A stretch of 64,000 nt of DNA from the NCBI GenBank assembly GCA_963707505.1, contig CAVPQB010000006.1, positions 608,001 through 672,000 of the forward strand, in the 5' to 3' direction. Under the pieces are notes generated by a model. That model was not told the DNA's origin, did not search any database, and worked only from the letters and a program-made list of their open reading frames with translations. The stretch comes from an uncultured Gemmatimonadales bacterium (lineage in GTDB: Bacteria; Gemmatimonadota; Gemmatimonadetes; Gemmatimonadales; Gemmatimonadaceae). Each line of letters begins with the position of its first letter. The first letter of the stretch is position 1. Below are positions 47,308-63,912 of this stretch, in pieces. Position numbers and translations under genes: made by a program.

Positions 47308-47537
47308 TCACAGTTGAAGTTAATAACACCCGGCATGTTCCTGGTCGGAGCTCTTGCGCGTGCGCGAGCAACGGCGCGACCGGGAACATGCTGGTTGGTC
47401 TGAGTGAAGCCGTATGGACATGCCTTCGAACGCGTGATCCGACAATCGGTCCGCCTGTCCGTCCACGCCGACGACCTGTGAACCGTATATTCGGCGACTG
47501 GCTCGTGTCGGTCGTCAACCACTGCTGTGAGGGGTAC

Positions 47538-49793
47538 ATGCGATTTTTCAGTCTCCCGCTTCTCGTCTCGCTTGGCGTGCTCGCCGTCCCGCTGGTCGCG
47601 GCGTCTCCGCCTCCATCCGGCGACATCCTCGGCTTCACTCCAGCGTCGTCGCGCGTCCAACGCGACTGGGAGAACAAATTCCGCGCGTTACCCGATCCTG
47701 CGCATATGCGCGCCGACATGAAACTGCTTTCCGCGCGTCCACACCACGTCGGCTCGCCGTACGACAAGCAGAATGCGGAATGGATCCTCAAACAATTCAA
47801 GGATGCCGGATGGGATGCGCACATCGAGACGTTCAACGTGCTTTTCCCGACACCAAAGCAGCGCCTCGTCGAGCTTGTTGCGCCGACACGCTTCACCGCG
47901 AAGCTCCAGGAACCGCCGGTGCCAGGAGACCCGACGTCGTCCCAGACGTCCGAGCAGCTTCCGACCTATAACGCATATTCGATCGACGGTGACGTCACGG
48001 GCCCGCTCGTGTACGTCAACTATGGAATTCCGTCGGACTACGATGAGCTTGCACGACGCGGTGTATCGGTCAAGGGCGCGATAGTCATCGCGCGTTACGG
48101 CCAGTCGTGGAGAGGGATCAAGCCGAAAGTCGCCGCGGAACATGGCGCAATTGGTTGTCTGATCTATTCCGATCCTGGCGATGACGGTTACAACGATGGT
48201 GACGTCTTTCCCAAAGGACCGATGCGTCCGGCCGACGGTGTCCAACGTGGAAGTGTGATGGACATGCCAACGTATCCGGGTGATCCGTTGACTCCGGGTG
48301 TCGGTGCCACGAAGGATGCAAAGCGTCTCGCACTCAAGGACGTGAAGGTATTCACCAAGATCCCCGTGCTCCCCATCTCGTACGGTGATGCGAAGCCATT
48401 ACTCGCGGCCATCGGCGGGGATGTTGCGCCGAGCGGCTGGCGTGGCGCGCTCCCGATCACCTACAAGGTTGGGCCCGGACCTGCGCGAGTCCATCTCGTC
48501 GTCAAGTCCAACTGGGACATCAAGCCGATTTACGACGTGATCGGCCAGTTGCGGGGAAGCTCATCACCCGATGAATGGGTAGTTCGCGGAAACCACCACG
48601 ACGCGTGGGTGAACGGCGCCGACGATCCGATCGCCGGCCAGGTTGCGCTGCTGGAGGAAGTCCGCGCAATGGGGGCGCTCGTCAAGCAGGGTTGGCATCC
48701 CAAGCGAACGATCATCTACGCCGCCTGGGATGGAGAGGAGCCGGGTCTGTTGGGTTCGACCGAGTGGGCTGAAACACACGCAGCGGAACTCGCGGCACAT
48801 GCAGTTGCGTATCTCAACAGCGACACGAACGGACGCGGTTACCTCGGCGCCAGTGGCTCGCACGTGTTGGAGAAGTTCATCAACGGAGTGATGCGCGACA
48901 TAACCGATCCCGAAACCGGCGCAAGCGTTGCAAGCCGGTCTCGCGCACGTTCGCTCCTGCATGCGTCCGCCGCCACGCGCAAGGACATTCGCAACCGCGC
49001 CGACCTTCACATCGGCGCACTTGGCTCCGGCTCCGATTACACTGCGTTCCTGCAGCACGTCGGCGTTCCATCGATGAACCTCGGTTTCGGGGGCGAGGAT
49101 CAGGGTGGTGTGTACCATTCAGTGTATGATGATTTCTACTGGTACACGCACTTCTCCGATACGTCGTTCGTATATGGCAAGGCGCTCGCGCAAACTGCTG
49201 GAACGGCAGTGATGCGTCTCGCTGACGCAGACGTAATCCCATATGATTTCACCGATCTTGCGGAGACTGTCGGTACCTATGTGACCGAGCTCAAGACGCT
49301 TCACAAGAACATGACGTCCGATGCCGTCGAGCATAATCGCGAAGTTGCCGATAGCGGATTCTTTCTTACGACCGACCCGCGTCATCCCATGGCGCTTCCG
49401 AAGGATGAAGCGACGGTTCCACCTCTCGACTTCTCACCGCTCGACAGCGCAACAGCTGCGTTGTCTCGCGCGGCGCAACGGTACCAGACAGCGTTCACAC
49501 AATCAATGGATGGTGCGGCGACCGCGAGCTTCGTCAAGCTCAACACCGACCTGCTTCAGAGCGAGCGCGTGCTGCTATCCGACGCCGGTCTCCCAAACCG
49601 CCCCTGGTTCAAGCATCTCCTCTATGCGCCAGGTTACTACACCGGCTACGGTGTGAAGACGATCCCCGGCGTGCGCGAGGCAATCGAGCAGAAGGAGTGG
49701 CCGCTTGCAACAACCGAGATCGGACGTGTGTCAGCGGCACTCAACGCTGAGGCTGCGCTCGTGGACCGTGCCGCAACGGACCTGGGTCACTGA
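47538..49793 (+). CDS. M28B glutamate carboxypeptidase II-like peptidase (PA and TfR-dimerisation domains)
   Basis: Start at MRFFSLP; YVNYG, RYGQSWRGIK, GNHHDAW, WDGEEPGLLGSTEW, LGSGSDY, YHSVYD, RPWFKHLLYAPG. Confidence 0.92.
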   Translation: MRFFSLPLLVSLGVLAVPLVAASPPPSGDILGFTPASSRVQRDWENKFRALPDPAHMRADMKLLSARPHHVGSPYDKQNAEWILKQFKDAGWDAHIETFNVLFPTPKQRLVELVAPTRFTAKLQEPPVPGDPTSSQTSEQLPTYNAYSIDGDVTGPLVYVNYGIPSDYDELARRGVSVKGAIVIARYGQSWRGIKPKVAAEHGAIGCLIYSDPGDDGYNDGDVFPKGPMRPADGVQRGSVMDMPTYPGDPLTPGVGATKDAKRLALKDVKVFTKIPVLPISYGDAKPLLAAIGGDVAPSGWRGALPITYKVGPGPARVHLVVKSNWDIKPIYDVIGQLRGSSSPDEWVVRGNHHDAWVNGADDPIAGQVALLEEVRAMGALVKQGWHPKRTIIYAAWDGEEPGLLGSTEWAETHAAELAAHAVAYLNSDTNGRGYLGASGSHVLEKFINGVMRDITDPETGASVASRSRARSLLHASAATRKDIRNRADLHIGALGSGSDYTAFLQHVGVPSMNLGFGGEDQGGVYHSVYDDFYWYTHFSDTSFVYGKALAQTAGTAVMRLADADVIPYDFTDLAETVGTYVTELKTLHKNMTSDAVEHNREVADSGFFLTTDPRHPMALPKDEATVPPLDFSPLDSATAALSRAAQRYQTAFTQSMDGAATASFVKLNTDLLQSERVLLSDAGLPNRPWFKHLLYAPGYYTGYGVKTIPGVREAIEQKEWPLATTEIGRVSAALNAEAALVDRAATDLGH

Positions 49794-49829
49794 GTTTGGC
49801 GTTGCCAACATGATGTGTTGTAAACGATA

Positions 49830-49860
49830 AACGGCACGCACCCATCTGGTGCGTGCCGTT
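49830..49860. terminator. Intrinsic terminator-like hairpin between convergent genes
   Basis: AACGGCACGCACC-CATCT-GGTGCGTGCCGTT, 13-bp perfect stem. Confidence 0.7.
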
Positions 49861-49869
49861 GCTATTGAT

Positions 49870-49934
49870 CGTCATTCCCGCGAACGCGGGAATCCATGTT
49901 ATCCGCCGTCATTCCCGCGTTCGCGGGAATGACG
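49870..49934. repeat. Inverted pair of CGTC-tagged REP palindromes (BIME/REPIN-like)
   Basis: CGTCATTCCCGCGAACGCGGGAATCCAT (49870-49897) and CGTCATTCCCGCGTTCGCGGGAATGACG (49907-49934), whose reverse complement has the GAAC loop. Confidence 0.8.
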
Positions 49935-49957
49935 AGTCGATGGCGCAGTGTCCTTGC

Positions 49958-51550
49958 TCAGAGACCCGACGTCTTGTCGATGAAAGCCGCGACATTGGTC
50001 TTGAACTGCGCAAGTGATGGCACATGAACGTAGATCATGTGCCCCGACATGTACTCGGCTTCGGTGATCTGACTGCGCACCTGCTTGGGTACACCAAGAT
50101 GATCCATCGTCCATTCAGCGGCGAAGTAAGGCGTCGCAAGATCGAAGAGACCGCTGTTGAGCATCACGTGCAGCTTGGGATTCGTGCTCAATGTGTTCGC
50201 GAGATCTACAGCGACGTTGGTATGCCCTGGCCATCCGCGTCTGTCGCCATGCGTCCAATCCCACGGATTCACCCTGCCAGAGATCGTGTAGAGCTTGTCG
50301 CGGCCGTAGTTGAGGTCTTCGTGCATGTACTGGTTGAACAGCGACACATACGCCGAGCTGATGTCCGCTGACTGCGGATCGTACTCGGCATTTTCGGCGA
50401 GCAGGTCCCCGGTCTCACCGACAAAACGCGCATCGAGACGACCGACTGTCTGACCGTGCTCGCGTAGCAGCTCCTTCTCGAACTGCCCCGCGTTCACGCG
50501 CAGGTTCGCCTTGTCGATGTACGCGCTGTTGAGTCCCGTGTACTGCTGCAGCCTGGTGATGATCCTCGTGCGATCGGCACTCGAGAGATTGTCGCCGGCC
50601 ATGAGAGCCTGTGCATAGTCAGTCGTTGCGAAGTGCTCGACCTCCTTGAGAAACGAGCGCAGATCGGCCGGTCGATTCGCCAGTGCGTTGTGATACCACG
50701 CAACGGCAGCGTACGATGGCAGATACATGATGTACGGCACATCGTTCCCGGCGTCGAACGTGATTGTCTGGAAGTCCAGGACCGACGACAACAGAATCAC
50801 ACCGTTCAGATCGATGTTGTAGCGATTCTGCAAGACGGCCGACAGCGCCGCGGAGCGCGTGGTGCCATAACTCTCGCCCATCAGATAGCGCGGCGAGTTC
50901 CATCGCCCCGACTCACTCAGGTAACGGCTCACAAATTCGCCGAGAGAGTTGGCGTCCTGATCCACGCCCCAGAAATTCTTCCCCGTCGCCTTGCCGACCG
51001 GCTTGCTGTATCCCGTTCCCACCGGGTCGATGAAAACCAGATCCGCCTTGTCCAGCATGCTGTACTGATTGTCCACCAGATGATACGGTGGCGGCGCTGA
51101 ATGCGCGGTATCGGGGATGTCAACGCGCCTGGGCCCCAGCAACCCCATGTGAACCCACACCGACGACGATCCCGGTCCGCCGTTGTACGCGAACATGATC
51201 GGTCTGCGTGACCGGTCAGTTACGCCACGCTGCGTATACGCTGTGTAATAAATCTCCGCCGTCGGCTCGTCCGTGCTGTCGCGGAGAATTATGGTGCCAA
51301 CCGTGGCGTCGTAATCGATTCGCTTGCCGCCGATCATCGCCGAGTGATGTGTGACGACGTGCACCTCTCTCGCAGGTGCTGGAGCGCGGGGGCCTTGAAG
51401 GATGGTGGTTTCGACCGTCGTGTCGGCGCGACCGCGAATCGTCGTGTCGCGGCTACTGTCCGGGCGTGCTTCCGGGCGTCGCGTGGCACGTTGACCGAAC
51501 GCGCCGGCTGGAATCAAAACTGCCGCGACAAGAAAGGCGGCTCTCTTCAT
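49958..51550 (-). CDS. S10-family serine carboxypeptidase, exported
   Basis: Start at MKRAAFL; NGGPGSSS, FIDPVGTGYS, GESYG, GLFDLATP, SGHMIY. Confidence 0.92.
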   Translation of the reverse strand: MKRAAFLVAAVLIPAGAFGQRATRRPEARPDSSRDTTIRGRADTTVETTILQGPRAPAPAREVHVVTHHSAMIGGKRIDYDATVGTIILRDSTDEPTAEIYYTAYTQRGVTDRSRRPIMFAYNGGPGSSSVWVHMGLLGPRRVDIPDTAHSAPPPYHLVDNQYSMLDKADLVFIDPVGTGYSKPVGKATGKNFWGVDQDANSLGEFVSRYLSESGRWNSPRYLMGESYGTTRSAALSAVLQNRYNIDLNGVILLSSVLDFQTITFDAGNDVPYIMYLPSYAAVAWYHNALANRPADLRSFLKEVEHFATTDYAQALMAGDNLSSADRTRIITRLQQYTGLNSAYIDKANLRVNAGQFEKELLREHGQTVGRLDARFVGETGDLLAENAEYDPQSADISSAYVSLFNQYMHEDLNYGRDKLYTISGRVNPWDWTHGDRRGWPGHTNVAVDLANTLSTNPKLHVMLNSGLFDLATPYFAAEWTMDHLGVPKQVRSQITEAEYMSGHMIYVHVPSLAQFKTNVAAFIDKTSGL

Positions 51551-51713
51551 GTTGGAATCCCGATTTTGGCTGAATTTCATGGTTGTGTCAGATTCGCACG
51601 CAGGCGCGTAACAGAGGCAGATATTACACGCACGACCGCTCTCCGCTAGCCGCCATCTCCCAGCAACCGGAATACCCAGCTCGGCTCATTACCTATATTT
51701 CAGTCCTACGCCC

Positions 51714-52205
51714 ATGAAGACCGCATTCATATATACGGCTACAGTCGCCGCTCTCGTCGCCTGCTCCCAGACGCCACCGGTTGCCGCACAAACACCTGTT
51801 CACTGGGCAATCGCCCCGGTTCATGGTGTGATCGGCAATGGTACGGTATCGAACGTAAGGATCGACGGGACCATTCAGGCTGGCTGGCACATCTACTCTA
51901 TCACCCAGCCGCCTGGCGGACCGTACGCCACACGGATCTCAGTCCCGGATGGTCAGTCGTTCGTCGCCGCTGGCAACCCCAAGGCAATCCTGGCGCCGCA
52001 CGTCGCATTCGACAGCGCCTTCAAGATGAATGTCCAGTTGCACGAAAAAGCGGCAAGTTTCGACGTCCCCGTGCGCTTCACTGGAAAGGTCGCCGCTGGC
52101 GACTCTGTCCACGTCAACGTCAGATACCAGGTCTGCAATGCCTCGCTCTGCCTCCCGCCCCAGACCGCGAAGCTCGTGGCCCCAGTTGTACCAACGGCCA
52201 GATAG
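51714..52205 (+). CDS. Stand-alone DsbD N-terminal (alpha) domain, probable lipoprotein
   Basis: LVAC lipobox; GWHIYS; YQVCNASLCLPP (C-x4-C). Confidence 0.8.
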   Translation: MKTAFIYTATVAALVACSQTPPVAAQTPVHWAIAPVHGVIGNGTVSNVRIDGTIQAGWHIYSITQPPGGPYATRISVPDGQSFVAAGNPKAILAPHVAFDSAFKMNVQLHEKAASFDVPVRFTGKVAAGDSVHVNVRYQVCNASLCLPPQTAKLVAPVVPTAR

Positions 52206-52239
52206 CCGCAGTCGATGATACTGTGCGTGGGATGAATCC

Positions 52240-53610
52240 GTGATCCAGACAGCAGCGGGAATTTCGCCCGCTTTTCTCTGGCTCGCTGCGACCGCAGGTG
52301 CATTGTCGCTGCTCACACCGTGCGTATTCCCCATGGTGCCGATCACGGTGTCGTATTTCCTGCGTCACGCACAAACGAGCCGAGCCCGAGCGTTCACTGC
52401 CGTCGCGATCTTCGGACTTGGCATCATCGTCACGTTCACGGCACTCGGCGTTACCGTCGCAGCGCTCGTTGGTGCTGCAGGGCTGACGCGATTCGCTGCC
52501 AATGCATGGGTGAATCTCGCGATTGCCGCAATCTTCCTCGGTCTCGCGCTCAACCTGCTCGGTTTCTATCAGTTGAACGTCTCGAGCCGAGTGCTGAGCG
52601 GCATCGATTCGGTCACGCGCGGCAGGAAAGAATCCGACGCCACGAGCGCGCTGCTCATGGGTGTGCTCTTCACGCTCACGAGCTTCACGTGCACCGCACC
52701 GTTCATTGGAACGCTGCTGGTCGCTGCATCACAGGGCGAATGGCAACGGCCGATCGTCGGAATGCTGGTTTATGCCGTTGTATTCGCGCTTCCATTCATC
52801 GTCCTCGCGACCGTCCCGCGCTGGATCAACAGTCTGCCCAGCTCCGGCGCCTGGCTGAATCGCATCAAGGTCGTGATGGGCTTCGTCGAGCTCGCCGCCG
52901 TGGCGAAGTTCATATCCAACGCGGATCTGGTCTGGCACTGGAACATCTTCACTCACGATGTCGTGCTCGCGATCTGGGTAGTGCTCGCGCTGATCGCGAC
53001 GTTCTACCTGTTGGGCGCATTTCGTCTGCCGCACGAGCCGCAGCTGGAGCGTACGGAAGCGACCAGAGCATCGCAGCGCGCATTACCGCACATCGGCGCC
53101 TCGCAGGCTGTCCCGGCACTGATTTTTCTTGCGCTCGGTATGTGGCTGGCCACCGGCCTCACGGGCGGTACGCTTGGTACGCTTGAATCGTTCCTCCCTC
53201 CCGTGGGTGGCGCACCGGCCGCGGTCAACGCCGCGGACGTCCCGGCCGAGCTCCACTGGCGGCTCAATGATCTTCCAGCGGCTCTCGCCGTCGCGCGCCA
53301 GCAGAACAGGCGTGTATTCATCGATTTTACCGGATACACGTGCACCAACTGCCGTTGGATGGAATCCAACATGTTCAGTCGGCCCGAGATAAAAGTCGCG
53401 ATGAACCGGTTCGTCCTCGCGCGTCTCTACACCGACGGCGACGGTGACATCTATGACAAGCAGCAGATGATGCAACAGCAGCGCTTCGGAACCATCGCCC
53501 TGCCGCTTTATGCGATAGTCGATCCTGACGGTAAAACAGTCACGACATTCGCCGGGCTTACACGCAGCCCAAATGATTTTCTTTCGTTCCTGTCCGCCGG
53601 GCTGAATTAG
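52240..53610 (+). CDS. dsbD: DsbD/CcdA transmembrane domain plus thioredoxin domain
   Basis: LLTPCVFPMVP, SFTCTAP, GAWLNRIKVVMGF, FIDFTGYTCTNCRWME. Confidence 0.85.
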   Translation: MIQTAAGISPAFLWLAATAGALSLLTPCVFPMVPITVSYFLRHAQTSRARAFTAVAIFGLGIIVTFTALGVTVAALVGAAGLTRFAANAWVNLAIAAIFLGLALNLLGFYQLNVSSRVLSGIDSVTRGRKESDATSALLMGVLFTLTSFTCTAPFIGTLLVAASQGEWQRPIVGMLVYAVVFALPFIVLATVPRWINSLPSSGAWLNRIKVVMGFVELAAVAKFISNADLVWHWNIFTHDVVLAIWVVLALIATFYLLGAFRLPHEPQLERTEATRASQRALPHIGASQAVPALIFLALGMWLATGLTGGTLGTLESFLPPVGGAPAAVNAADVPAELHWRLNDLPAALAVARQQNRRVFIDFTGYTCTNCRWMESNMFSRPEIKVAMNRFVLARLYTDGDGDIYDKQQMMQQQRFGTIALPLYAIVDPDGKTVTTFAGLTRSPNDFLSFLSAGLN

Positions 53611-53809: not shown

Positions 53810-55444
53810 ATGTTGTCCCATCGCTCGTTGTGCATTGGGCTCCTGCTGTTGCCGGCGCTTCCTGCGTTCGGTCAGAAACCCGCCGCGTCGCATCGTCCTG
53901 CGCAGGCGCGCTCGCAACAAACGTCGGCATCTCTTGCTGCCCCGCAGGTACGTGCAGTCGTGCTTCCGGTCGACGGACTCGAGAGTGATTCGGTGCAGAC
54001 GATCATCTCGCGCGATCTGAATTTCGGCGATCGCGTACAGGTTGTATCCGATCTGACACCTGTCGTACCGTCCACCAAAAAGACGCAGCAGCCAACCGCT
54101 GTGGTCAGGACAGTCGCAACTGCGGCCGGAGTGACCGTATCACTTGTCGATCCGCTGAGCGGTACAGTCAGGCAGCAGCATGACTTTGCGCTCCCGCAGG
54201 TGTCGCGTCGTACGGAACAGGCAATTGCCGATTCGCTGAACCAGGCATTCGACGCGCGCGACCTCATGCGTCGCACACGCATCGTTCGCGCAGAGACAGT
54301 TCGCGATTCGCTCCAGGCCGAGATGGCCAAAAAGGCGCCCAAGCTGCGCAACAAGGAGGCGAAGGCGCAATACGCCGAGCTCGTGACACAGCGCAACAAC
54401 ATGCTCATCGGCGCGCTGGGGGAGCTGGCGACAATCCGTGGCGAGCGTGAGCGTGATGAAGCCGCCCGCGCCGGGGTTCAGCACGATGCCATCGCACGCG
54501 AAGCAGTGATTCGCGATTCGGCGACCGCGGCCCGCCGCTGGGCAATCCACGGTGTTTCTGATGCCGTTGAGGAGTGGATGACCGGACATCGCGGCATCGC
54601 ACAGTCGCGCGTCGCGTACGTATCGAACGGTGTGATTCGTGTCGTCGATTTCGATGGGGCCAACGATCATCCGGTAACGCGTATCGACAAGGATGGAGAC
54701 AAGGCCATGTCGCCCGCGTGGCGCCGGGATGGCACCGCCATCGTTTACAGCGAGATGAGTGATGCAGGCACGCAGATCGCCGTGGTCGATCTCGTCACCG
54801 GAACGACTCGCGCATTGGCTGCAACACCGCGCGGGCTCAACATCACGCCGATCTTCTCCGCTGATGACAAGTCAGTCATCTACGCGAACGGCTCCGATTT
54901 CCACACCAGTCTTGTCTCGGTCCAGCTTGACGCCGCCACGACGGCCAAGCCGCTTCCGGTAAACCGCGCCTTCGACGTGGATGAGCCGATTCTGAGCCCC
55001 GACGGCACGCGCATCGCCTACGTGTCGTCCCGCCCCAAGACCCCGCAGATCTATTCCGCCAATCTTGACGGAACAGACGAGCGTGTCGAAGCACCTGCAC
55101 CTCCAAAGACGCGTGTCTATCACACCAGCCCGGACTGGAGCCCCGACGGACGGATGATCGCGTACCAGCAGCAGAATGGCGATTTCCAGGTCTGGGTGGT
55201 GAACCGGGATAGCCGCAGCGTCCGCCGTCTCACCTCAGTTGGCGAGAACGAGGATCCGTCGTGGGCACCGGACGCGCGCCACATCGCTCTCACGTCCAAC
55301 CGTGGCGGTGCCAAGGCAATCTGGGTTCTGGATATCCAGACCGGTCGATTCCGGCAGCTCACGGCAGCCGGCGACGCTCGTCTGGCGGCCTGGTCTGGCC
55401 CGCTCGGCTCCAGAGCTCCAGCACCCCTGGCGATCGCTCGATAG
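53810..55444 (+). CDS. TolB-like periplasmic beta-propeller (PD40 repeats) with helical insertion
   Basis: Start at MLSHRSL with SD GGAGG; IISRDLNFGDR; HGVSDAVEEWMTGHRGIAQSRVAYV; SPAWRRDG, PILSPDG, SPDWSPDG, NEDPSWAPD. Confidence 0.8.
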   Translation: MLSHRSLCIGLLLLPALPAFGQKPAASHRPAQARSQQTSASLAAPQVRAVVLPVDGLESDSVQTIISRDLNFGDRVQVVSDLTPVVPSTKKTQQPTAVVRTVATAAGVTVSLVDPLSGTVRQQHDFALPQVSRRTEQAIADSLNQAFDARDLMRRTRIVRAETVRDSLQAEMAKKAPKLRNKEAKAQYAELVTQRNNMLIGALGELATIRGERERDEAARAGVQHDAIAREAVIRDSATAARRWAIHGVSDAVEEWMTGHRGIAQSRVAYVSNGVIRVVDFDGANDHPVTRIDKDGDKAMSPAWRRDGTAIVYSEMSDAGTQIAVVDLVTGTTRALAATPRGLNITPIFSADDKSVIYANGSDFHTSLVSVQLDAATTAKPLPVNRAFDVDEPILSPDGTRIAYVSSRPKTPQIYSANLDGTDERVEAPAPPKTRVYHTSPDWSPDGRMIAYQQQNGDFQVWVVNRDSRSVRRLTSVGENEDPSWAPDARHIALTSNRGGAKAIWVLDIQTGRFRQLTAAGDARLAAWSGPLGSRAPAPLAIAR

Positions 55445-55477: not shown

Positions 55478-55574
55478 TGTAACGCTACGTTACAACCATT
55501 TCGTTTCGCAAACCGGCGGGTCACACTGTAAGTCGTTGGTATCCAACGATTTAACTTGTGGCCCGCCGGTTGCT
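55478..55574 (+). promoter_or_regulatory. Sigma54 promoter module: enhancer palindrome, IHF-like dyad, -24/-12 box
   Basis: TGTAACG-CTA-CGTTACA (55478-55494); TAAGTCGTTG-N5-CAACGATTTA (55529-55553); TGGCCC-GCCGG-TTGCT (55559-55574). Confidence 0.8.
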
Positions 55575-55620
55575 TTAGGGCTGTGTGCAAGAACCTTCGC
55601 ACATTACTGGAGCCAAGCAC

Positions 55621-56334
55621 ATGTTTCGTACTTCGATCGTTCGCTCTACCATATTCGGTCTGGGCGTCGCGCTCATCGCGACGGGGTGCACACCGGAGAA
55701 CCTTTCCGGACCCCAGGTATCGCTGACCCCACCGAATGCAGCAGTCACGGCACCAGCCGTAGCTGCACCGCGGGCAGGAACGCCTGGAGCCAACGCCAAC
55801 CTGCTTGGCGGAGTCCTCAATCTTACTGGAGCAGTCGTCCAGACAGTCGTTCAAACGGTGAATGACCTGCTTTACCCGGTCGTTCAGCGCCAGCAGGCCC
55901 TGGCTCATCCGATCACGGTCACGCACACGATCGGCACTGCTGGCGGATCGATCTCAATTCCGCAGGCAGGTCTCACCATAACGTTCGCCCGCGGTGCGGT
56001 GCTAAGGTCCACGCCGATCACGGTTACCGCCGACTCTGGCAAGGCGGTTTCATACGAGTTTGGTCCACACGGCACGCAGTTCTACGCGCCGGTAACGATC
56101 GCGCAGGACATGAGCCTGACGACGCTGGCGGACAAGCCCGGCGCCGCTTCCGGCATCCACGGCGGTTACACCGCGAACGGCCTGCAAGACATAATCGGCG
56201 GATTGCTGGCACGTGTCGCCGAGCTCCTCGATGCGACGACAACGGTCATAATCGGCCGCGATGGCAAGGCCCACCTCGGTACTTCCAGCTTCATAATCAA
56301 GCACTTCTCGGGCTACATCCTGATCAGCACCTGA
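55621..56334 (+). CDS. Lipoprotein with ZU5-like beta-sandwich domain ending in an HFS motif
   Basis: SD GGAG; lipobox IATG-C23; IGTAGGSISIPQAGLTITFARGAV..TPITVT..YEFGPHGTQFYAPVTI resembles ZU5 domains; C-terminus IIKHFSGYILIST. Confidence 0.65.
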   Translation: MFRTSIVRSTIFGLGVALIATGCTPENLSGPQVSLTPPNAAVTAPAVAAPRAGTPGANANLLGGVLNLTGAVVQTVVQTVNDLLYPVVQRQQALAHPITVTHTIGTAGGSISIPQAGLTITFARGAVLRSTPITVTADSGKAVSYEFGPHGTQFYAPVTIAQDMSLTTLADKPGAASGIHGGYTANGLQDIIGGLLARVAELLDATTTVIIGRDGKAHLGTSSFIIKHFSGYILIST

Positions 56335-56342
56335 GGCGCGCA

Positions 56343-57392
56343 ATGAACTCCGAAGCGATGCACTTTCCACCCACACCGTTCGATGAGCTGCGCGCACGCG
56401 CAGCTCAGTTCATCGACAAGGCCAAGACAGCTCAACGTCATGGTGATGCGGACAGTGCGTTGGCGCACTACGATGACGCGCTCTCGTTGATGGAGGATGA
56501 GGGCGATTCCCCCATGGCTGCCGATGTGCTCAGATGGAAGGGCTGGGTGTTGAGCGAACGAGGGGATACACCCGCAGCGTACCGGTTCTTCAATCGAAGT
56601 CTCGCAATGGCCGAACGGCTCGATTACGTGAATGGCCAGGCACATGCGCTCAACTGTCTTGGCACAATTGCACAGCGTCGAGGAGAGCTGAAAAATGCCG
56701 AGCGGTTGTACAGCCAGGCCGCGTTTCGCGCTGAAGCGAGCGCCGACCGTCGGTTGCTCGGAATGGTCGAGCTGAATCAGGGAGTGATCGCATCGTCGCT
56801 GGGAGACTGGGACACTTCGATAGTGCGGTTGCGGCTGAGTCTCAAGGCATTCGAGAGCGTCGGCGACAAGGAGGGAGCGTCCTACGCGCACAACAACATC
56901 GGACTGCATTACGCCGCAAGGAAGCGTTATGCACAGGCTGTCGAATCGTTTGAAATGGCTCTCGCGATCGCGTACTCGCGAGAAGACATGGTGGTCGAGG
57001 CAACGGTCGAGCTGAACCTCGGCGACGTTCGAATACGGCAGGCGGAGCTTGACAGCGCGACGCGGTCGGTTGCCCGGGCGCTCAAGATCGCTGAGATCCG
57101 GCGGGACCGCCTTCGCATGGCCGAGGCGCTGCGGCTCAAGGCACGGATCGAGAGGTTGCGCGGACAGTTGGCGACAGCCGTGGAGACGCTGCGGCAGGCA
57201 CGCTATCAGGCTCGGGAGGGCGAAGATGCCCTGCTTCAGCTGGAGCTTCTGACCGAGCTCGGCGAGCTCTGCCGCGAGCAGGGCGATTCGGAGCGGACCA
57301 GAGACGTTCTTCGAGAAGCCCTGGTCGGTTTTACCGAGATAGGCGCGATCAGACGAGCCGAGGCAATTGCGGAGGAATTGGCCGCTTTGTAG
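56343..57392 (+). CDS. Stand-alone cytoplasmic tetratricopeptide-repeat protein
   Basis: About eight 40-aa helical repeats (AHALNCLG, VELNQG, AHNNIG, VELNLG); no signal peptide or catalytic domain. Confidence 0.85.
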   Translation: MNSEAMHFPPTPFDELRARAAQFIDKAKTAQRHGDADSALAHYDDALSLMEDEGDSPMAADVLRWKGWVLSERGDTPAAYRFFNRSLAMAERLDYVNGQAHALNCLGTIAQRRGELKNAERLYSQAAFRAEASADRRLLGMVELNQGVIASSLGDWDTSIVRLRLSLKAFESVGDKEGASYAHNNIGLHYAARKRYAQAVESFEMALAIAYSREDMVVEATVELNLGDVRIRQAELDSATRSVARALKIAEIRRDRLRMAEALRLKARIERLRGQLATAVETLRQARYQAREGEDALLQLELLTELGELCREQGDSERTRDVLREALVGFTEIGAIRRAEAIAEELAAL

Positions 57393-57424
57393 GCCTTTGC
57401 AGGGGCGTCAGTTGGTTACAGCTT

Positions 57425-57470
57425 GATGCGAGGTTGGCCGACACTCTGAGGGTGTCACCAACCTCGCATC
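57425..57470 (+). other. Strong intergenic hairpin between the TPR and activator genes
   Basis: GATGCGAGGTTGG-CC-GACACTC-TGA-GGGTGTC-A-CCAACCTCGCATC: 13-bp plus 7-bp stem, no U-tract. Confidence 0.7.
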
Positions 57471-57474
57471 CGCA

Positions 57475-58563
<1,089 letters not shown>

Positions 58564-58574
58564 CGACAGCGACA

Positions 58575-60188
58575 ATGACGCAGATTGGCGGAGTCTCGCG
58601 TCCTGATTCTCCTGTTTCGTTCGACGACGTGGTCGGCGAGGCGCGGAGTCTCGAGCGGAATGGCAGATGGACGGAGGCACGCTCCTGCTATGAGCGTCTA
58701 TTGGGTGACGATACACTCACCGCGGCGGCGCGCTCATCGGTATTACGCTGGATCGGCCGCACGCACGCCGAGGAAGGGAATCCGGACACAGCGTTCTCCG
58801 TGCTCGAGCGGGCCGTTGCGGCCGCGCAGGAATCAGGTGAGGTGGGCGTGGAAGCGCACGCGCTCAACGGGCTCGCGGTAATCGAGCAGACGCTGGGCAA
58901 CCTCGACCGTTCCGAGGAGTTGTATGTACGCGCGCGAAGCCGTGCCGCCGAAGCCGACGATGAGCTGCTGGTGGCGATACTGGACCAGAATCTCGCAACC
59001 GTGGCGAACATTCGCGGTAATCTGGAGCTCGCGCTCGAGTCGTATGGATCGAGCCGGAAGCGCTTCCATGCGCTGGGCCGTTCATCATACGAAGCACACG
59101 TGCTCAATAATGTCGGGATGGTGCTGACAGATCTTGGACGGTGGGAAGACGCCGAAGCGGCGTATTGCTCCGCGTGCGAAGCGTGTGCAAGCAGCGACGA
59201 CAGAGAGCTGCTGCGCAGGATCGAGGTGAATCAGGCCGAGCTCTGGATTGCACGTAACGATCTGCCCAAGGCGCGCGAGCGGTGCGAGCGGTTGCTGAAC
59301 GATGCACAGCGTGAAAAAAATGTATCAGCGCCATGGCTCGGCGAGGTTTACAAGCACTACGGCGTCGTGTGCCGGGAACAGCGTCAGCTTGATCGTGCTG
59401 AAGGTTGGTTTGCACAGGCAGCAAGGATCGCGGATAACTCGCATGACCTGCTCCTTGCCGCTGAAACGGCGCGCGAGCAGGCCGAGCTTTACTGGATTCA
59501 GGCGCGAAACAGCGACACGCTGCAGGCGCTGAACGCAGCACACGGCTGGTTTTCACAACTGCGCGCGGAGCGTGACCTCGATGCGATCGCACGGCGCAAC
59601 GGACGTCTGGAAGAGCGTTTTCTCGAAGTAGTGCGGAAGTGGGGCGAATCGATCGAAAGCAAGGACTGTTACACGCAAGGGCACTGCGTACGTGTCGCAG
59701 ACGTAGCGTGCATGCTCGCCGAGCGTATGGGGTTCGACTCGAAAACATTGTTCTGGTTCCGCATTGGCGCTCTGCTGCACGACGTTGGCAAGTTGATAGT
59801 TCCGCAGGAAGTGCTCAACAAGCCAGGCAAGCTCGATGACGATGAGTGGCGCATCATGAAGCGTCACCCCGAAGCCGGTGTCGAGCTGCTGGCCGACATC
59901 GAATTTCCGTGGGATGTGAGGCCCATGGTGCGCAACCATCACGAGCGCTGGGACGGCGCAGGATATCCGGATGAGCTGGCGGGTGAAGCGATACCGCTTT
60001 CGGCGCGCATTCTCTGCATCGCCGATGTGTACGACGCTCTCACGACGAATCGCTCGTACCGTAAGGGGTTCGATCATGAACGGGCTGTGGCCGTAATGAC
60101 CGAGAACAATGCGAACGGTCACTTCGATCCGGCGATATTCGATCTCTTCCTCGAATGGGCTGCGACGCACAACACACAGGTGGGATGA
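58575..60188 (+). CDS. TPR-repeat HD-GYP cyclic-dinucleotide phosphodiesterase
   Basis: N-terminal TPR array; C-terminal KDCYTQGHCVRV, LLHDVGK, LNKPGKL, HHERWDGAGYP, IADVYDALTTNRSYRK, all motifs intact. Confidence 0.92.
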   Translation: MTQIGGVSRPDSPVSFDDVVGEARSLERNGRWTEARSCYERLLGDDTLTAAARSSVLRWIGRTHAEEGNPDTAFSVLERAVAAAQESGEVGVEAHALNGLAVIEQTLGNLDRSEELYVRARSRAAEADDELLVAILDQNLATVANIRGNLELALESYGSSRKRFHALGRSSYEAHVLNNVGMVLTDLGRWEDAEAAYCSACEACASSDDRELLRRIEVNQAELWIARNDLPKARERCERLLNDAQREKNVSAPWLGEVYKHYGVVCREQRQLDRAEGWFAQAARIADNSHDLLLAAETAREQAELYWIQARNSDTLQALNAAHGWFSQLRAERDLDAIARRNGRLEERFLEVVRKWGESIESKDCYTQGHCVRVADVACMLAERMGFDSKTLFWFRIGALLHDVGKLIVPQEVLNKPGKLDDDEWRIMKRHPEAGVELLADIEFPWDVRPMVRNHHERWDGAGYPDELAGEAIPLSARILCIADVYDALTTNRSYRKGFDHERAVAVMTENNANGHFDPAIFDLFLEWAATHNTQVG

Positions 60189-61783
60189 CAATGTCGTTCA
60201 TACGTCGCGAAGATGTTGGCGCATCGCTGCGATCGGTCGCGCTTGCAGGATTGATCATCATCGCTGTCGCTGCGTGCGCGGGAGAGGCGAGGGTCGGGAA
60301 GGCGAGTGGTGCAGGAGGGACACTCGTTGTCGCCACAGCCGGCGACGCCGACAACCTCTTTCCACCGCTTACACTGACCAGTCAGGGGCGCCAGGTGGTG
60401 GATCAGATATTCGATTATCTGGCGGACATCGGCCCCGACTTGAATACGATTGGCGATGGAGGCTTCACGCCCAGGCTGGCCGATTCCTGGCGCTGGGCTC
60501 CGGATTCGTCGTGGATAGCGTTCCACATCAATCCGCGTGCACGCTGGCACGACGGGCAGCCGGTTCGCGCCGGCGACGTCCGCTTCACATTCAAATTGCT
60601 GACGGACTCGACGCTTGCATCGCCGATTGCAGCGACATTGCGCGGGATCGATTCGGTAAGTGTGCGCGATTCACTTACTGCGGTCGTGTGGTACTCGAGA
60701 CGGACGCCGGAGCAGTTCTTCAATTTCGTGTACAACGTCGCGATACTGCCTGAGCATCTTCTGCACGATGTTCCGGTGAAGTCACTTGCATCGTCACAGT
60801 TTGCGCGGCATCCAGTGGGCAGTGGCCGGTTCAGGTTTGGCAGATGGGACGGCGGGTCGCGCATCGAGATCGTGACTGACAGTAATAACTATCGCGGACG
60901 CGCACGGCTCGATCGCGTTGTGTGGTTGGTGTCGCCGGACATGCAGGCAGCGACGACGCGGTTGCTGGCGGGCGAGGCGGACTTCCTCGAGGTCGTGCGT
61001 GGTCCCGCAGTGGATCAGGTTGTCGCATCGCCGCGCGTACGACTGTTGACGTCGCCGAGTCTCGATTACGGCTTTCTGGGGTTCAACGTTCGGCGTGCGC
61101 CGTTCAATGACAGGGAAGTACGGCGTGCGTTGAGCATGGCCGTGGATCGGTCGGCGATGGCCCGGAACGTGTTCGACACGCTGGCGCTCCCGGGGCTCGG
61201 CCCCGTGACGCGCGCGTTACCGGTCAGCAGGAACGTTGTTGCACTTTCGTATGATTCCGCGGCAGCGGTGAAGATACTTGCCGCGCACGGTCCGATCTCC
61301 TTCCGGTTGCTCGTTCCCACGTCGAGCGCCGTGCGCATGAAGTACGCAACGCTGCTTCAGGAGCAGTACCGTCGCTTCGGAGTGAACGTGACCATCGAGC
61401 CGCTCGAGGTCAACGCATTCGTTCGGCGACTCACAAGAAGCGACTTCGATGCGGTGCTCAATGCATGGCATTCCGACCCCAGTCCTGCCGCCGTTGTTCA
61501 GGCATGGGGGACGGCCGGCGCGCCGCCCGAGGGTGCGAATTTTGTCGGGTACACGAGTCAGCGCTTCGACGCGCTGGTGGATAGCGGCGCACGGTCATTC
61601 GATCCGGCGCGTGCGCGTGACTTTTATGCGCGGGCCTATGAGGAGATCGATGGCGACGCTCCGGCGGTGTGGCTGTACGACGCCCGGAACGCGAGCGGGG
61701 TGAGCCGTCGGGTGCACGTAGCTGGCACGAGGGCGGACGCCTGGTGGTCCGATCTTCCAGACTGGACAGTCGGCAAGCGCTGA
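60185..61783 (+). CDS. Peptide ABC transporter substrate-binding lipoprotein (SBP family 5, OppA/DppA-like)
   Basis: ATGA overlap with the HD-GYP stop; lipobox VAAC; PRLADSW, RWHDGQPVRAGDVRFT, PVGSGRFRF, PFNDREVRRALSMAVDR. Confidence 0.88.
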   Translation: MTMSFIRREDVGASLRSVALAGLIIIAVAACAGEARVGKASGAGGTLVVATAGDADNLFPPLTLTSQGRQVVDQIFDYLADIGPDLNTIGDGGFTPRLADSWRWAPDSSWIAFHINPRARWHDGQPVRAGDVRFTFKLLTDSTLASPIAATLRGIDSVSVRDSLTAVVWYSRRTPEQFFNFVYNVAILPEHLLHDVPVKSLASSQFARHPVGSGRFRFGRWDGGSRIEIVTDSNNYRGRARLDRVVWLVSPDMQAATTRLLAGEADFLEVVRGPAVDQVVASPRVRLLTSPSLDYGFLGFNVRRAPFNDREVRRALSMAVDRSAMARNVFDTLALPGLGPVTRALPVSRNVVALSYDSAAAVKILAAHGPISFRLLVPTSSAVRMKYATLLQEQYRRFGVNVTIEPLEVNAFVRRLTRSDFDAVLNAWHSDPSPAAVVQAWGTAGAPPEGANFVGYTSQRFDALVDSGARSFDPARARDFYARAYEEIDGDAPAVWLYDARNASGVSRRVHVAGTRADAWWSDLPDWTVGKR

Positions 61784-61956
61784 TGTCCGATTCCGTACCG
61801 AATCGGTACGGCGCGTGCGGTCTGACGAGGCGATGAATACAATTCAGGGAGTCCAACCTGTTCGGTCAGCTCCGTGACTGACCATTTTGGATAGCCGCTG
61901 GCACCGCGCTGCGGCTCCGCGGGTCACGAGATTCCATTCTTTCGGAGTAATCAGAA

Positions 61957-63912
61957 ATGCTTCAGCCAAGATCGGCCGCTGCGGTGGTCGTTCTCTTCAG
62001 CGCGCTTGCGGCAGGTGCGCAGCAGCCGACTCCACAGCAGACAGAAGCGACCCGCAGAGGAGCTGGTGACACGTCGATCTTTGCACCGCTGGATCTGTAT
62101 CCGTCGCCCAACGTTTACAGGACCGGTGACGGCCGGCCCGGCGCTCATTACTGGCAGCAGCGCGCCGATTACGATCTGCACGCGACGCTGGATACGACGA
62201 ACAAATCGCTGAGCGCATCGATGACGTTGCGATACACGAACAACTCGCCAGATACCCTGCGATTCATCTGGGTTCAGACCGAGCAGAACGCATTCCGGCC
62301 GGGTTCGCTCAACACGCTCGTATTCGCACCCGACAGTCGCTTCGGATCGCGCAGCTTTGTGGGTGGCGATGTGATCGATCACTTCAATCAAGTCGTCAAC
62401 GGACGTGCGACTCCACTCAAGTTGCGCGACAACGGAACTGTGACCAAGGTCGATCTGGCCCAGCCACTGGCGCCTGGCAAGACGGCTACATTCGACGCAG
62501 CATGGCACTTTCTGATTCCGGAGCATGGCGCTGATCGCATGGGCCGCGATGGTTCGCTGTTCGAGCTCGCCCAGTGGTATCCACGTGTGAACGTGTATGA
62601 CGACGTCCGCGGCTGGAACACGGAGCCGTATCTCGGACAGGGCGAGTTCTATCTGGAGTACGGTGATTTCAATCTGAGCGTCACGGTTCCATCGGGCTAC
62701 ATCGTGGCCGCGACGGGAACGCTCGCGAATCCGCACGACGTGCTGACGCCGACCGAGATCGCCCGTCTTGCGAAGGCGGCCAGGTCCGACACACCAGTAC
62801 CGATCATCACGGCATCGGATCTCACCAGCGGGGCAGCGCGGCCACGGACTACCGGCACGATGACGTGGCGCTTCAAGGCACACAACGTGCGCGACGTGGC
62901 GTGGGCGGCATCGCCCGAATACCAGTGGGATGCATCGAGCTGGAAGGGAATTCTGGCGCAGGCGTACTATCGGCCGAGCGCGGCAATCAACTGGGACGAT
63001 GCGGCGGACCAGGCGCGCATGTCGATTCAGGAGTATTCGGAGCGCTGGTTCATGTATCCGTATCCTCAGATCACCGCCGTCGAAGGTCCGATCAGCGGAA
63101 TGGAGTACCCGATGCTCGCGATGGAGACCAAGAGTCGCGACAAGCCGGATCTGTACAACGTCGTGACTCATGAGATCGGACACAACTGGTTCCCGATGAT
63201 CGTCGGCTCCAACGAGCGCGTACAGTTCTGGCAGGACGAAGGTTTCAACACGTTCATCAACACCTTCAGCGAAGCGCGTCGCTATCCGCAGAACGGCGAC
63301 CAGATGCAGCGAGCAGCCGAGGAGCGTGCACAGGTCGAGCAGACGCAGAAGTTGAACATCGACGTTCCGATCATCACGAATCCGGATCGTATCGACCCGC
63401 GCAAGCTCGGCTTCACAGAATACGTCAAGACGTCTGTCGGCCTTCAGCTTCTGCGCCAGGAGATCATGGGGCCTGCGGCCTTCGACGACGCGTTCAAGGA
63501 ATACACGCGCCGTTGGGCGTTCAAGCATCCAACGCCGACTGATTTCTTCCGTACGATGGAATCGGTTGGCGGGCAGCGGCTGGACTGGTTCTGGCGCGAG
63601 TGGTTCTATGAAGATCCACATTTCGATCAGGCCATCGAGTCGGTGCAGGCGACTGATTCGAGTGGGGTGCAGCACGTCACGGTCGTGTATGGCAATCGTG
63701 CACGCGGTGTGCTGCCGATACGCGCGCACTTCACCTTCAGCGACGGCACAACGCAGGATTTCGAGTATCCCGCGCTGGTCTGGAGTACCAACAGTGTCCG
63801 CTATGTTCGGGAATACGACTTCACCGGCAAGACTGTGAAGCGGATCGATCTCGATCCCGATCGGCGTCTTGTGGATGTCGATCGGACGAACAACAGCTGG
63901 ATGGCGCAGTGA
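61957..63912 (+). CDS. M1-family zinc aminopeptidase, exported
   Basis: Signal peptide; YWQQRADY, AQWYPR, GMEYP, HEIGHNWF...DEGFN, WAFKHPTP. Confidence 0.92.
   Translation: MLQPRSAAAVVVLFSALAAGAQQPTPQQTEATRRGAGDTSIFAPLDLYPSPNVYRTGDGRPGAHYWQQRADYDLHATLDTTNKSLSASMTLRYTNNSPDTLRFIWVQTEQNAFRPGSLNTLVFAPDSRFGSRSFVGGDVIDHFNQVVNGRATPLKLRDNGTVTKVDLAQPLAPGKTATFDAAWHFLIPEHGADRMGRDGSLFELAQWYPRVNVYDDVRGWNTEPYLGQGEFYLEYGDFNLSVTVPSGYIVAATGTLANPHDVLTPTEIARLAKAARSDTPVPIITASDLTSGAARPRTTGTMTWRFKAHNVRDVAWAASPEYQWDASSWKGILAQAYYRPSAAINWDDAADQARMSIQEYSERWFMYPYPQITAVEGPISGMEYPMLAMETKSRDKPDLYNVVTHEIGHNWFPMIVGSNERVQFWQDEGFNTFINTFSEARRYPQNGDQMQRAAEERAQVEQTQKLNIDVPIITNPDRIDPRKLGFTEYVKTSVGLQLLRQEIMGPAAFDDAFKEYTRRWAFKHPTPTDFFRTMESVGGQRLDWFWREWFYEDPHFDQAIESVQATDSSGVQHVTVVYGNRARGVLPIRAHFTFSDGTTQDFEYPALVWSTNSVRYVREYDFTGKTVKRIDLDPDRRLVDVDRTNNSWMAQ

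Follow-up and report, generated by a model that had tools for sequence, protein, structure and literature searches.

A conserved ZU5 lipoprotein and TPR gene pair in Gemmatimonadota with a defined candidate peptide ligand

What could pass from an exported lipoprotein to the TPR proteins and the sigma-54 activator that are encoded in the same operon? The question is raised by five genes in the window analyzed here, a stretch of 64,000 nucleotides from a soil-type Gemmatimonadota bacterium (contig CAVPQB010000006.1, positions 608,001 to 672,000). In order, they encode a lipoprotein with a ZU5-like domain, a standalone TPR protein, a sigma-54 activator, a TPR protein fused to an HD-GYP domain, and a family-5 solute-binding protein (SBP). 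An initial annotation proposed that the exported precursor yields a peptide or envelope signal read by both TPR proteins, one gating the activator and the other gating turnover of cyclic diguanylate (c-di-GMP). We find that the feature is real and conserved and has a defined candidate ligand at the C terminus of the lipoprotein; the mechanism is what we infer from it. The conserved core is the pair formed by the ZU5 lipoprotein gene and a TPR(-HD-GYP) gene, to which the activator and the SBP are add-ons.

The ZU5 lipoprotein and TPR gene pair across the phylum

The lipoprotein family was detected in 79 of 201 genomes of the order; broadening the alignment and sampling the whole phylum gave 76 positive genomes out of 151. 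Its named relatives are Gemmatimonadota, mostly Gemmatimonadaceae; the ESM Atlas yielded no clusters other than unnamed ones from Gemmatimonadota, in one of which 55% of the members carry ZU5, and 4137 representatives matched at E ≤0.001. We surveyed gene neighborhoods in 60 regions hand-picked from 105 order-level matches, with short frames and long contigs favored and distances taken from stop-to-stop frames. A TPR-family gene lay within 600 nt of the ZU5 gene in 49 regions and anywhere in the region in 56, and the same regions contained a TPR-HD-GYP gene in 49 cases, an SBP gene in 23, and a sigma-54 activator gene in 13. A second set of 67 loci, obtained with an independent ZU5 pattern, had a TPR-family gene in 55, and in 32 of the 36 loci where both flanks exceeded 2.5 kb. 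The five genes had been expected to be co-conserved as a set; they do co-occur, but the unit is the pair; 9 of 38 activator loci, for example, have no standalone TPR gene.

The link also appeared in the reverse direction. Among the best 120 of 271 TPR-family matches (at least 200 bits), a listed ZU5 gene lay within 6 kb of 89, and in genomes outside the alignments this held for 33 of 58. We fetched 25 of the 31 TPR loci that had no listed ZU5 gene and found a divergent ZU5 gene nearby in 9. As a control, long ZU5-containing proteins were TPR-linked in just 1 of 25 cases, with two split ZU5 pieces excluded. Rough arithmetic puts the adjacency expected by chance at about 1%. Related genomes are not independent, yet the link between ZU5 and TPR genes extends over several families of the phylum.

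In the window, all five genes lie on the + strand and are tightly spaced, as first described. The gap is 8 nt between the lipoprotein and TPR genes and 82 nt between the TPR and activator genes; the TPR-HD-GYP gene overlaps the activator gene by 4 nt if read from its GTG start (an alternative ATG at 58575 leaves a gap of 11 nt) and overlaps the SBP gene by 4 nt. An orthologue of the activator (72 to 98% identity) is present in 16 of 21 genomes of the same genus. Eleven of these 16 loci have the five genes in order, and 3 more agree as far as their contig ends allow; of the remaining loci, one lacks the TPR and SBP genes and one retains the TPR and activator genes only. The genus, promoter, and activator counts include L011 and L012 (genomes G007 and G017, marked unpublished), and no claim depends on these alone.

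Several loci depart from this arrangement. A decaying copy (L007:1289-3800) retains the TPR and activator genes, has a short remnant of the lipoprotein gene and an altered -24 element, and has lost the HD-GYP and SBP genes. Another locus (L014:751-4241) has two lipoprotein copies around an unrelated gene, the second apparently frameshifted, and a second enhancer-like site; other frameshifts in L014 may be assembly errors. Two tandem arrays (L140:4813-8897 and L144:5216-10797) each encode six ZU5 lipoproteins with slightly differing 7-residue tails and are bordered by TPR genes and a sigma-54 activator gene. Duplicated modules occur in L050, L051, and L052, in the order ZU5-ZU5-TPR-TPR/HD, then (ZU5)-TPR-activator-TPR/HD-SBP. 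Fusion proteins of ~1600 amino acids are encoded in L053 to L056, L059, L060, L062, L064, L067, and L068, several of them behind an SBP gene and two permease genes and divergent from the ZU5 gene; the two that we scanned read TPR-HD-GYP-GGDEF-STAND nucleoside triphosphatase-TPR. The long ZU5-like proteins used as a control (open frames of >460 amino acids) are possibly conventional release-type surface proteins.

The lipoprotein fold and its C-terminal tail

The lipoprotein (55621-56334, + strand, 237 amino acids) has a signal peptide with the lipobox IATGC, a lipobox Cys at residue 23, a flexible linker with one helix, and a ZU5/GAIN-fold domain at residues ~82 to 237. The lipobox Cys is found at positions 11 to 45 in 223 of 233 homologues. 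The Pfam ZU5 match is sub-threshold (E 0.019); the original description as ZU5-like nevertheless stands, because structure prediction and fold search agree on it, and 22 of 61 family members match ZU5 at E ≤0.01. In the structure model, the predicted local confidence (pLDDT) exceeds 90 for 148 residues, and the confident part spans residues ~82 to 237. The best fold match is the ZU5 domain of ankyrin-B (Z 11.6, root-mean-square deviation 2.4, 115 residues aligned), with GAIN domains at Z 8.1 to 8.2; the search ranked the ZU5 domains of ankyrin and UNC5b first, followed by GAIN and FIIND domains (Foldseek E 2.5e-5).

In an alignment of 36 of 85 homologues, C23 and the motif H228-F229-S230-x-Y232, eight residues before the end, are invariant, and H, F, S, and Y are also invariant in alignments A1 and A2. 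HF[ST] is present in 231 of 233 homologues and H[FL][ST] in 190 of 204 distinct ZU5 proteins from the loci. The tail that follows has 7 residues in 66 of these 190 proteins, 8 residues in 47, and more in 77; SRYAVAW and SRYMLASG are examples of tails at other loci. In the model, H228-F229-S230 forms the turn between strands 217-228 and 231-236, which gives the protein the Hx(S/T) site of the superfamily in place. Alignments to NLRP1 (6x6c, ending at 1212; 7crv) end at F229, as do the alignments to five GAIN structures (6v55, 8hc0, 5kvm, 8vti, and 7qu8), whose chain ends we take to be cleavage sites. The nucleophile in NLRP1 is reported as S1213 (PMC3210808), and bacterial MAIN domains are described as cut at HF/S with their fragments held together (bioRxiv 10.64898/2026.05.12.724683).

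Self-cleavage is likely given the fold match, the coincidence of F229 with the NLRP1 and GAIN alignment ends, the conserved HF[ST], and the MAIN precedent. Going by the model, the lipoprotein very probably cuts itself between F229 and S230, with the tail staying in place as the last beta-strand. The predicted motif and tail occupy 56302-56331 on the + strand, and the signaling peptide is most likely the tail itself, SGYILIST (56308-56331), cut off at HF/S. The initial proposal is supported in part, by comparative evidence that includes a plausible import route (see below); it did not name the peptide.

Two further observations concern this protein. Some ZU5 homologues keep a tail-like end without the His or the Ser (L118, L123, L124, L126, L127, L128, L132, L080, L087, and L091) and are possibly non-cleaving; in Nup98, according to PMC3210808, loss of the His need not prevent cleavage. 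Ahead of the ZU5 domain, most homologues have a conserved LLGG segment and a helix at residues 66 to 81 (window positions 55780-55863, residues ~54 to 81), which might tether the protein to the membrane or carry a second signal.

A proposed route from the tail to the activator, and its rivals

The standalone TPR protein (56343-57392, + strand, 349 amino acids; Pfam TPR_12) and the TPR part of the TPR-HD-GYP protein (58560-60188, + strand; Pfam TPRs and HD_5) are 26% identical, and both consist of 40-residue repeats. They share the same ladder, N104/N145/N185/N225 in the numbering of the standalone protein, with each Asn at the equivalent position in the first helix of its repeat, together with R64. 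The concave face of TPR superhelices is lined by the first helices. Across 67 TPRs, N104 and N185 are invariant and N145, N225, and R64 are at least 90% conserved, in standalone and HD-fused proteins alike, in agreement with the Asn-lined groove noted at the outset. The standalone TPR has no hydrophobic segment and so resembles the RRNPP receptors in being cytoplasmic with groove asparagines; a fold search places peptide-bound LGN/Pins TPRs first, with a Rap protein (4gyo) at rank 48. In RRNPP receptors, a conserved Asn anchors the peptide backbone, and in AimR an Arg holds the C-terminal carboxylate (PMC6458997).

We also predicted how the standalone TPR would pair with the C-terminal 30 residues of the uncut lipoprotein. 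The score was 0.39, compared to 0.03 for the best of three controls (contacts agreed to at least 55%, and the partner pLDDT was at least 35), which is weak support for this pairing: 116 of 157 solved pairs and 2 of 215 mismatched pairs attained the mark, and scores of ≤0.60 included only 18 of the 157 solved pairs and both mismatches. Because TPR-peptide complexes have already been solved, the score may reflect likeness to them.

Of the two add-ons and the enzyme, the TPR-HD-GYP protein and the SBP bear on the peptide arm. The HD and HHExxDGxGYP motifs of the former are intact, as in HD-GYP phosphodiesterases. Its nearest solved protein is V-cGAP3 (5z7c), a 3'3'-cyclic GMP-AMP (3'3'-cGAMP) phosphodiesterase, followed by HD-GYP enzymes including 4mcw; the substrate is probably c-di-GMP, although the best solved match acts on 3'3'-cGAMP. 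The SBP (60185-61783, + strand; Pfam SBP_bac_5) is a family-5 lipoprotein whose nearest solved protein is the oligopeptide-binding AppA (1xoc, E 3.7e-40), as expected of a peptide binder. Its description as an orphan holds locally, with no adjacent permease gene, but a 46%-identical paralogue elsewhere in the genome (G000:C3:467175) heads an operon with two permeases and ATPase-like genes, whose transporter part spans C3:468757-472868. oppB/oppC-like permease genes were found in 13 of 48 loci with both ZU5 and SBP genes. In loci of the Gemmatimonas type, the ZU5 and TPR-HD genes are separated by the SBP and permease genes, and in several loci an SBP-permease-permease-TPR/HD set is divergent from the ZU5 gene.

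These observations suggest a route in which the exported lipoprotein would be lipidated at Cys23, and its folded domain would cut itself at F229/S230 and store the octapeptide as its last strand. The unanchored 8-mer would then be set free in the envelope when the domain unfolds, is pulled, or is proteolyzed; the AppA-like SBP would capture the peptide and pass it to a borrowed oppBCDF-type transporter encoded elsewhere. Judged from sequence, we lean slightly toward release in the envelope followed by SBP capture and import through the borrowed transporter. Inside the cell, the peptide would enter the Asn-lined groove of both TPR proteins and alter cyclic-dinucleotide turnover, and that it binds both grooves and changes this turnover (probably that of c-di-GMP) likewise seems somewhat better supported than not.

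A number of results count against a tail-derived peptide as the signal. H[FL][ST] is lacking in 14 of 204 ZU5 hits, and some of those without the Ser retain a tail-like end; tails of >8 residues, in 77 of 190 proteins, would need trimming. An SBP gene neighbors the ZU5 gene in no more than 23 of the 60 regions and in 4 of the 67 loci of the second set, and 16 of the 25 fetched TPR loci had no ZU5 gene even on inspection. Mutual information between the tail and the pocket pointed at groove positions (tail position 4 with residue 141) before tree correction, but after correction at most five independent pairs were left, none of them significant, and we rejected covariation as support. In addition, the conservation of a buried beta-strand is explicable by folding alone.

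Some of these results are also what one would expect if the ZU5 lipoprotein is an output of the system, such as a releasable surface or adhesion protein, with a purely structural tail, and if the TPR proteins read some other peptide or protein imported through the SBP. In the model, the fold ends with the tail as its final strand (residues 231 to 236), the tail does not covary significantly with the TPR pocket, TPR-family loci without a ZU5 neighbor exist, and MAIN fragments are reported to remain tightly bound unless denatured (bioRxiv 10.64898/2026.05.12.724683). However, the protein offers no cargo domain for release, since the anchor is N-terminal and just 7 or 8 residues lie past the cut. 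The adjacency of the genes across families of the phylum, repeated in tandem modules, and the near absence of TPR linkage among long ZU5 proteins (1 of 25) also argue against this reading, and we regard an output role as unlikely.

The activator arm is specific to this lineage. The sigma-54 enhancer-binding protein (57475-58563, + strand, from a TTG start) was annotated as lacking a regulatory domain, and Pfam matches (Sigma54_activat at residues 41 to 207, lid, HTH_8) indeed leave just ~40 residues ahead of the AAA+ domain. The motifs expected of a sigma-54 enhancer-binding protein are intact (Walker A/B, GAFTDA loop, arginine finger, and Fis-type helix-turn-helix), and GAFTDA is listed among the variants expected to remain active (PMC4641369). 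The N-terminal extension is not conserved outside the genus. Wherever a TPR or ZU5 gene adjoins the activator gene (36 loci), the AAA+ domain starts 109 to 301 nt past the upstream stop, too close for an input domain to fit in between. Among solved sequences, the activator is closest to ZraR, NifA, and NtrC-type proteins, with PspF ranked lower. In the tree, the relatives of the activator (41 of 66 rows) fall together on one side of a branch with an SH-like approximate likelihood ratio support of 96, a grouping that is partly circular because they were defined by E <1e-84 to this protein.

The standalone TPRs beside the activator group in a single clade (35 rows, support 99), and the activator gene directly follows 27 of the 32 members of this clade that have flanking sequence, L217 among them. 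The upstream neighbor of 38 activator genes with flank is a TPR gene in 29 cases, the ZU5 gene in 7, and neither in 2, and all 38 have a TPR-family neighbor.

The operon is preceded by a sigma-54 promoter with its own palindromic enhancer, both present as annotated: a -24/-12 element, TGGC-N7-TTGCT, at 55559-55574 (+ strand), which is kept in the genus loci, and the palindrome TGTAAC-N5-GTTACA at 55478-55494. The palindrome is the sole match in the window at ≤1 mismatch (0.01 expected), and a regulon search of the 3.66-Mb assembly, which is 83% complete, found no second enhancer at ≤1 mismatch. The genome encodes rpoN, and a sigma-70 promoter scan returned 0 sites. Between the enhancer and the promoter, on the - strand at 55529-55541, lies a site with one mismatch to WATCAANNNNTTR, which we take to be the integration host factor (IHF) consensus; on that assumption, an IHF-like match is found at the same position in most aligned promoters and somewhere in 16 of 23 enhancer-promoter segments.

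We scored an enhancer-promoter pair as a palindrome with ≤2 mismatches located 80 to 82 bp before the sigma-54 element, with the arms conserved and the spacer free. Of 20 loci with this activator, 16 had such a pair; of 53 loci without it, none did. This co-occurrence supports autoregulation within the close group, and the activator likely binds the palindrome, to judge from these sequences. Tempering this, 13 of the 16 positives are from this genus and 3 from another, and no such pair was found in 14 additional activator loci at greater distance. Upstream of the ZU5 gene in L061 and L063, a direct repeat, AAGATTCTTGTC, replaces the palindrome and occurs with a GAFTGA-type activator; it is possibly a different enhancer.

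In the last step of the proposed route, the standalone TPR would be an anti-activator relieved by the peptide, and the freed activator, acting from the palindrome, would produce positive feedback and more precursor. We give an even chance to the standalone TPR acting on the activator in trans, in which case it would most likely be a peptide-relieved anti-activator. An inhibitor is preferred to an essential cofactor because L016, which has no standalone TPR, keeps the promoter.

The activator could instead escape TPR gating altogether, being constitutive, set by its own level, or responsive to the cyclic dinucleotide controlled by the neighboring HD-GYP protein, with the standalone TPR buffering the peptide or partnering HD-GYP. 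FleQ and BerB are activators that read a cyclic dinucleotide. All nine activator loci without the standalone TPR have an adjoining TPR-HD-GYP gene; enhancer and promoter are perfect in L016; standalone TPRs of other clades sit before TPR-HD genes and not before activator genes; and no TPR-activator fusion was found among the 22 longer relatives listed of 8000 scored, which is weak evidence. What this alternative leaves unexplained is the single, well-supported TPR clade that precedes the activator so regularly, and we hold it to be improbable. The initially proposed link between TPR and activator, with feedback through the enhancer, is accordingly retained in part: a dedicated TPR clade pairs with the activator and the enhancer co-occurs with it, but some loci do without the TPR.

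A third alternative, that the TPR proteins detect cytoplasmic precursor that was not exported or has misfolded, by binding its C-terminal tail, and report secretion or envelope-assembly stress with no need for cleavage or import, would fit the variants that keep tail-like ends without His or Ser, the lack of an SBP gene in most loci, and the weak complex prediction obtained with an uncut 30-mer, but it is quite improbable given the strong conservation of both the lipobox Cys (223 of 233) and HFS (231 of 233), the complete SBP-permease sets beside the ZU5-TPR pair in 13 loci, and the C-terminal extensions on many tails with the Ser end fixed.

The whole route, from self-cleavage through release and import to control of the phosphodiesterase and of the activator by the TPR proteins, feedback included, is put forward tentatively, at somewhat less than an even chance. 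More tentatively still, the tethered agonist found in adhesion G-protein-coupled receptors (GPCRs) may have a free-peptide counterpart in Gemmatimonadota: the self-cut ZU5 lipoprotein would be an envelope tripwire storing a 7- or 8-residue signal, and the imported peptide would act through TPR receptors to set c-di-GMP and, in this lineage, to unlock an amplifying sigma-54 activator. If so, the tandem arrays with differing tails would amount to a peptide code.

The surroundings of the operon add little to this picture. A weak terminator-like hairpin lies 3' of the SBP gene (61864-61883, + strand), in a scan at chance level (5 such sites compared to 4.8 expected). We considered the TolB-like beta-propeller gene upstream (53810-55444) and the M1 peptidase gene downstream (61957-63912) as operon parts and did not count them, because they stay with the operon inside the genus only; in the wider fetched loci the M1 peptidase had no match, and matches to the propeller were weak and unrelated. 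The M1 peptidase could degrade the peptide. Further upstream (47298-53610) are genes that, from their sequences, we take to be two for secreted peptidase-like proteins and a DsbD-like pair.

Comparison with known systems

The composition was initially called undescribed, and our full-text literature search turned up no account of such a system; most subscription papers lie outside that search, as does the supplementary list of 15,000 MAIN proteins, and these sources could include the proteins described here. If the proposed route is true, it would represent peptide signaling through cytoplasmic TPR receptors in a diderm, a logic so far tied to Firmicutes, with no processing protease needed. 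It would also answer the question of the MAIN preprint whether a bacterial GAIN-like C-fragment can signal, and provide both a bacterial parallel to the adhesion-GPCR tethered agonist and a new mode of gating a sigma-54 activator. Because the candidate ligand is a defined octapeptide, each step is cheaply testable.

MAIN domains are one close bacterial comparison. As described by Brogan and Rudner (bioRxiv 10.64898/2026.05.12.724683), they are secreted beta-sandwiches with an HFS motif cut between F and S, and their fragments stay associated; the proteins are large, with a C-terminal surface anchor and an N-terminal cargo that is released, and the preprint knows of no signaling by the C-fragment. 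The operon lipoprotein, in contrast, has 237 amino acids, an N-terminal lipid anchor, no cargo, a C-fragment that would be a free 7- or 8-mer, and a TPR link. A term search of the main text of that preprint returned no ZU5, TPR, lipoprotein, HD-GYP, or Gemmatimonad.

The fold and the HF/S or SF/S site are shared more widely with ZU5-superfamily autoproteases, namely, PIDD, the FIIND of NLRP1 and CARD8, Nup98, and bacterial toxin-associated ZU5 proteins (PMC3482391, PMC3210808). What is cut off at the C-terminal side in these accounts is a large protein or a domain with its own fold, with neither peptide import nor a TPR receptor; in NLRP1 and CARD8 release of the C-fragment is the regulated step (PMC12575685), and the bacterial members are known from toxins and large surface proteins (PMC3482391). 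Adhesion-GPCR GAIN domains, which the MAIN preprint also describes, resemble the lipoprotein in that self-cleavage leaves a short hydrophobic last strand as the would-be signal. Their strand is tethered to a seven-transmembrane receptor, whereas that of the operon would be free and its receptor cytoplasmic.

Input-less sigma-54 activators are represented by PspF with PspA and HrpR/S with HrpV. Like them, the activator described here is an AAA+ domain and a helix-turn-helix only, encoded beside a candidate partner gene and its own enhancer; its candidate partner differs in being a TPR of the peptide-binding type.

In logic, the operon would resemble the RRNPP systems (Rap, NprR, PlcR, PrgX, Rgg, and AimR). 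RRNPP receptors have their effector domain N-terminal and their TPRs C-terminal; in the operon, the TPRs are N-terminal to HD-GYP. According to PMC6458997 and PMC10075063, RRNPP systems combine an adjacent precursor with a cytoplasmic TPR receptor, an extended Asn-anchored peptide, and oligopeptide import, all of which would have counterparts here, but they belong to Firmicutes and use small secreted propeptides processed by other proteases. The operon is from a diderm phylum, with a 237-residue lipoprotein that is predicted to cleave itself and a sigma-54 output. The adjacent exported product is that folded lipoprotein, in tightly packed genes (open reading frames of at least 80 amino acids were listed), no RRNPP model was among the NCBIfam hits, and the relatives are Gemmatimonadota. 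Overall, the lipoprotein is in the ZU5/GAIN superfamily by fold and motif and outside MAIN by architecture, and the system would work like RRNPP, yet it is no RRNPP member.

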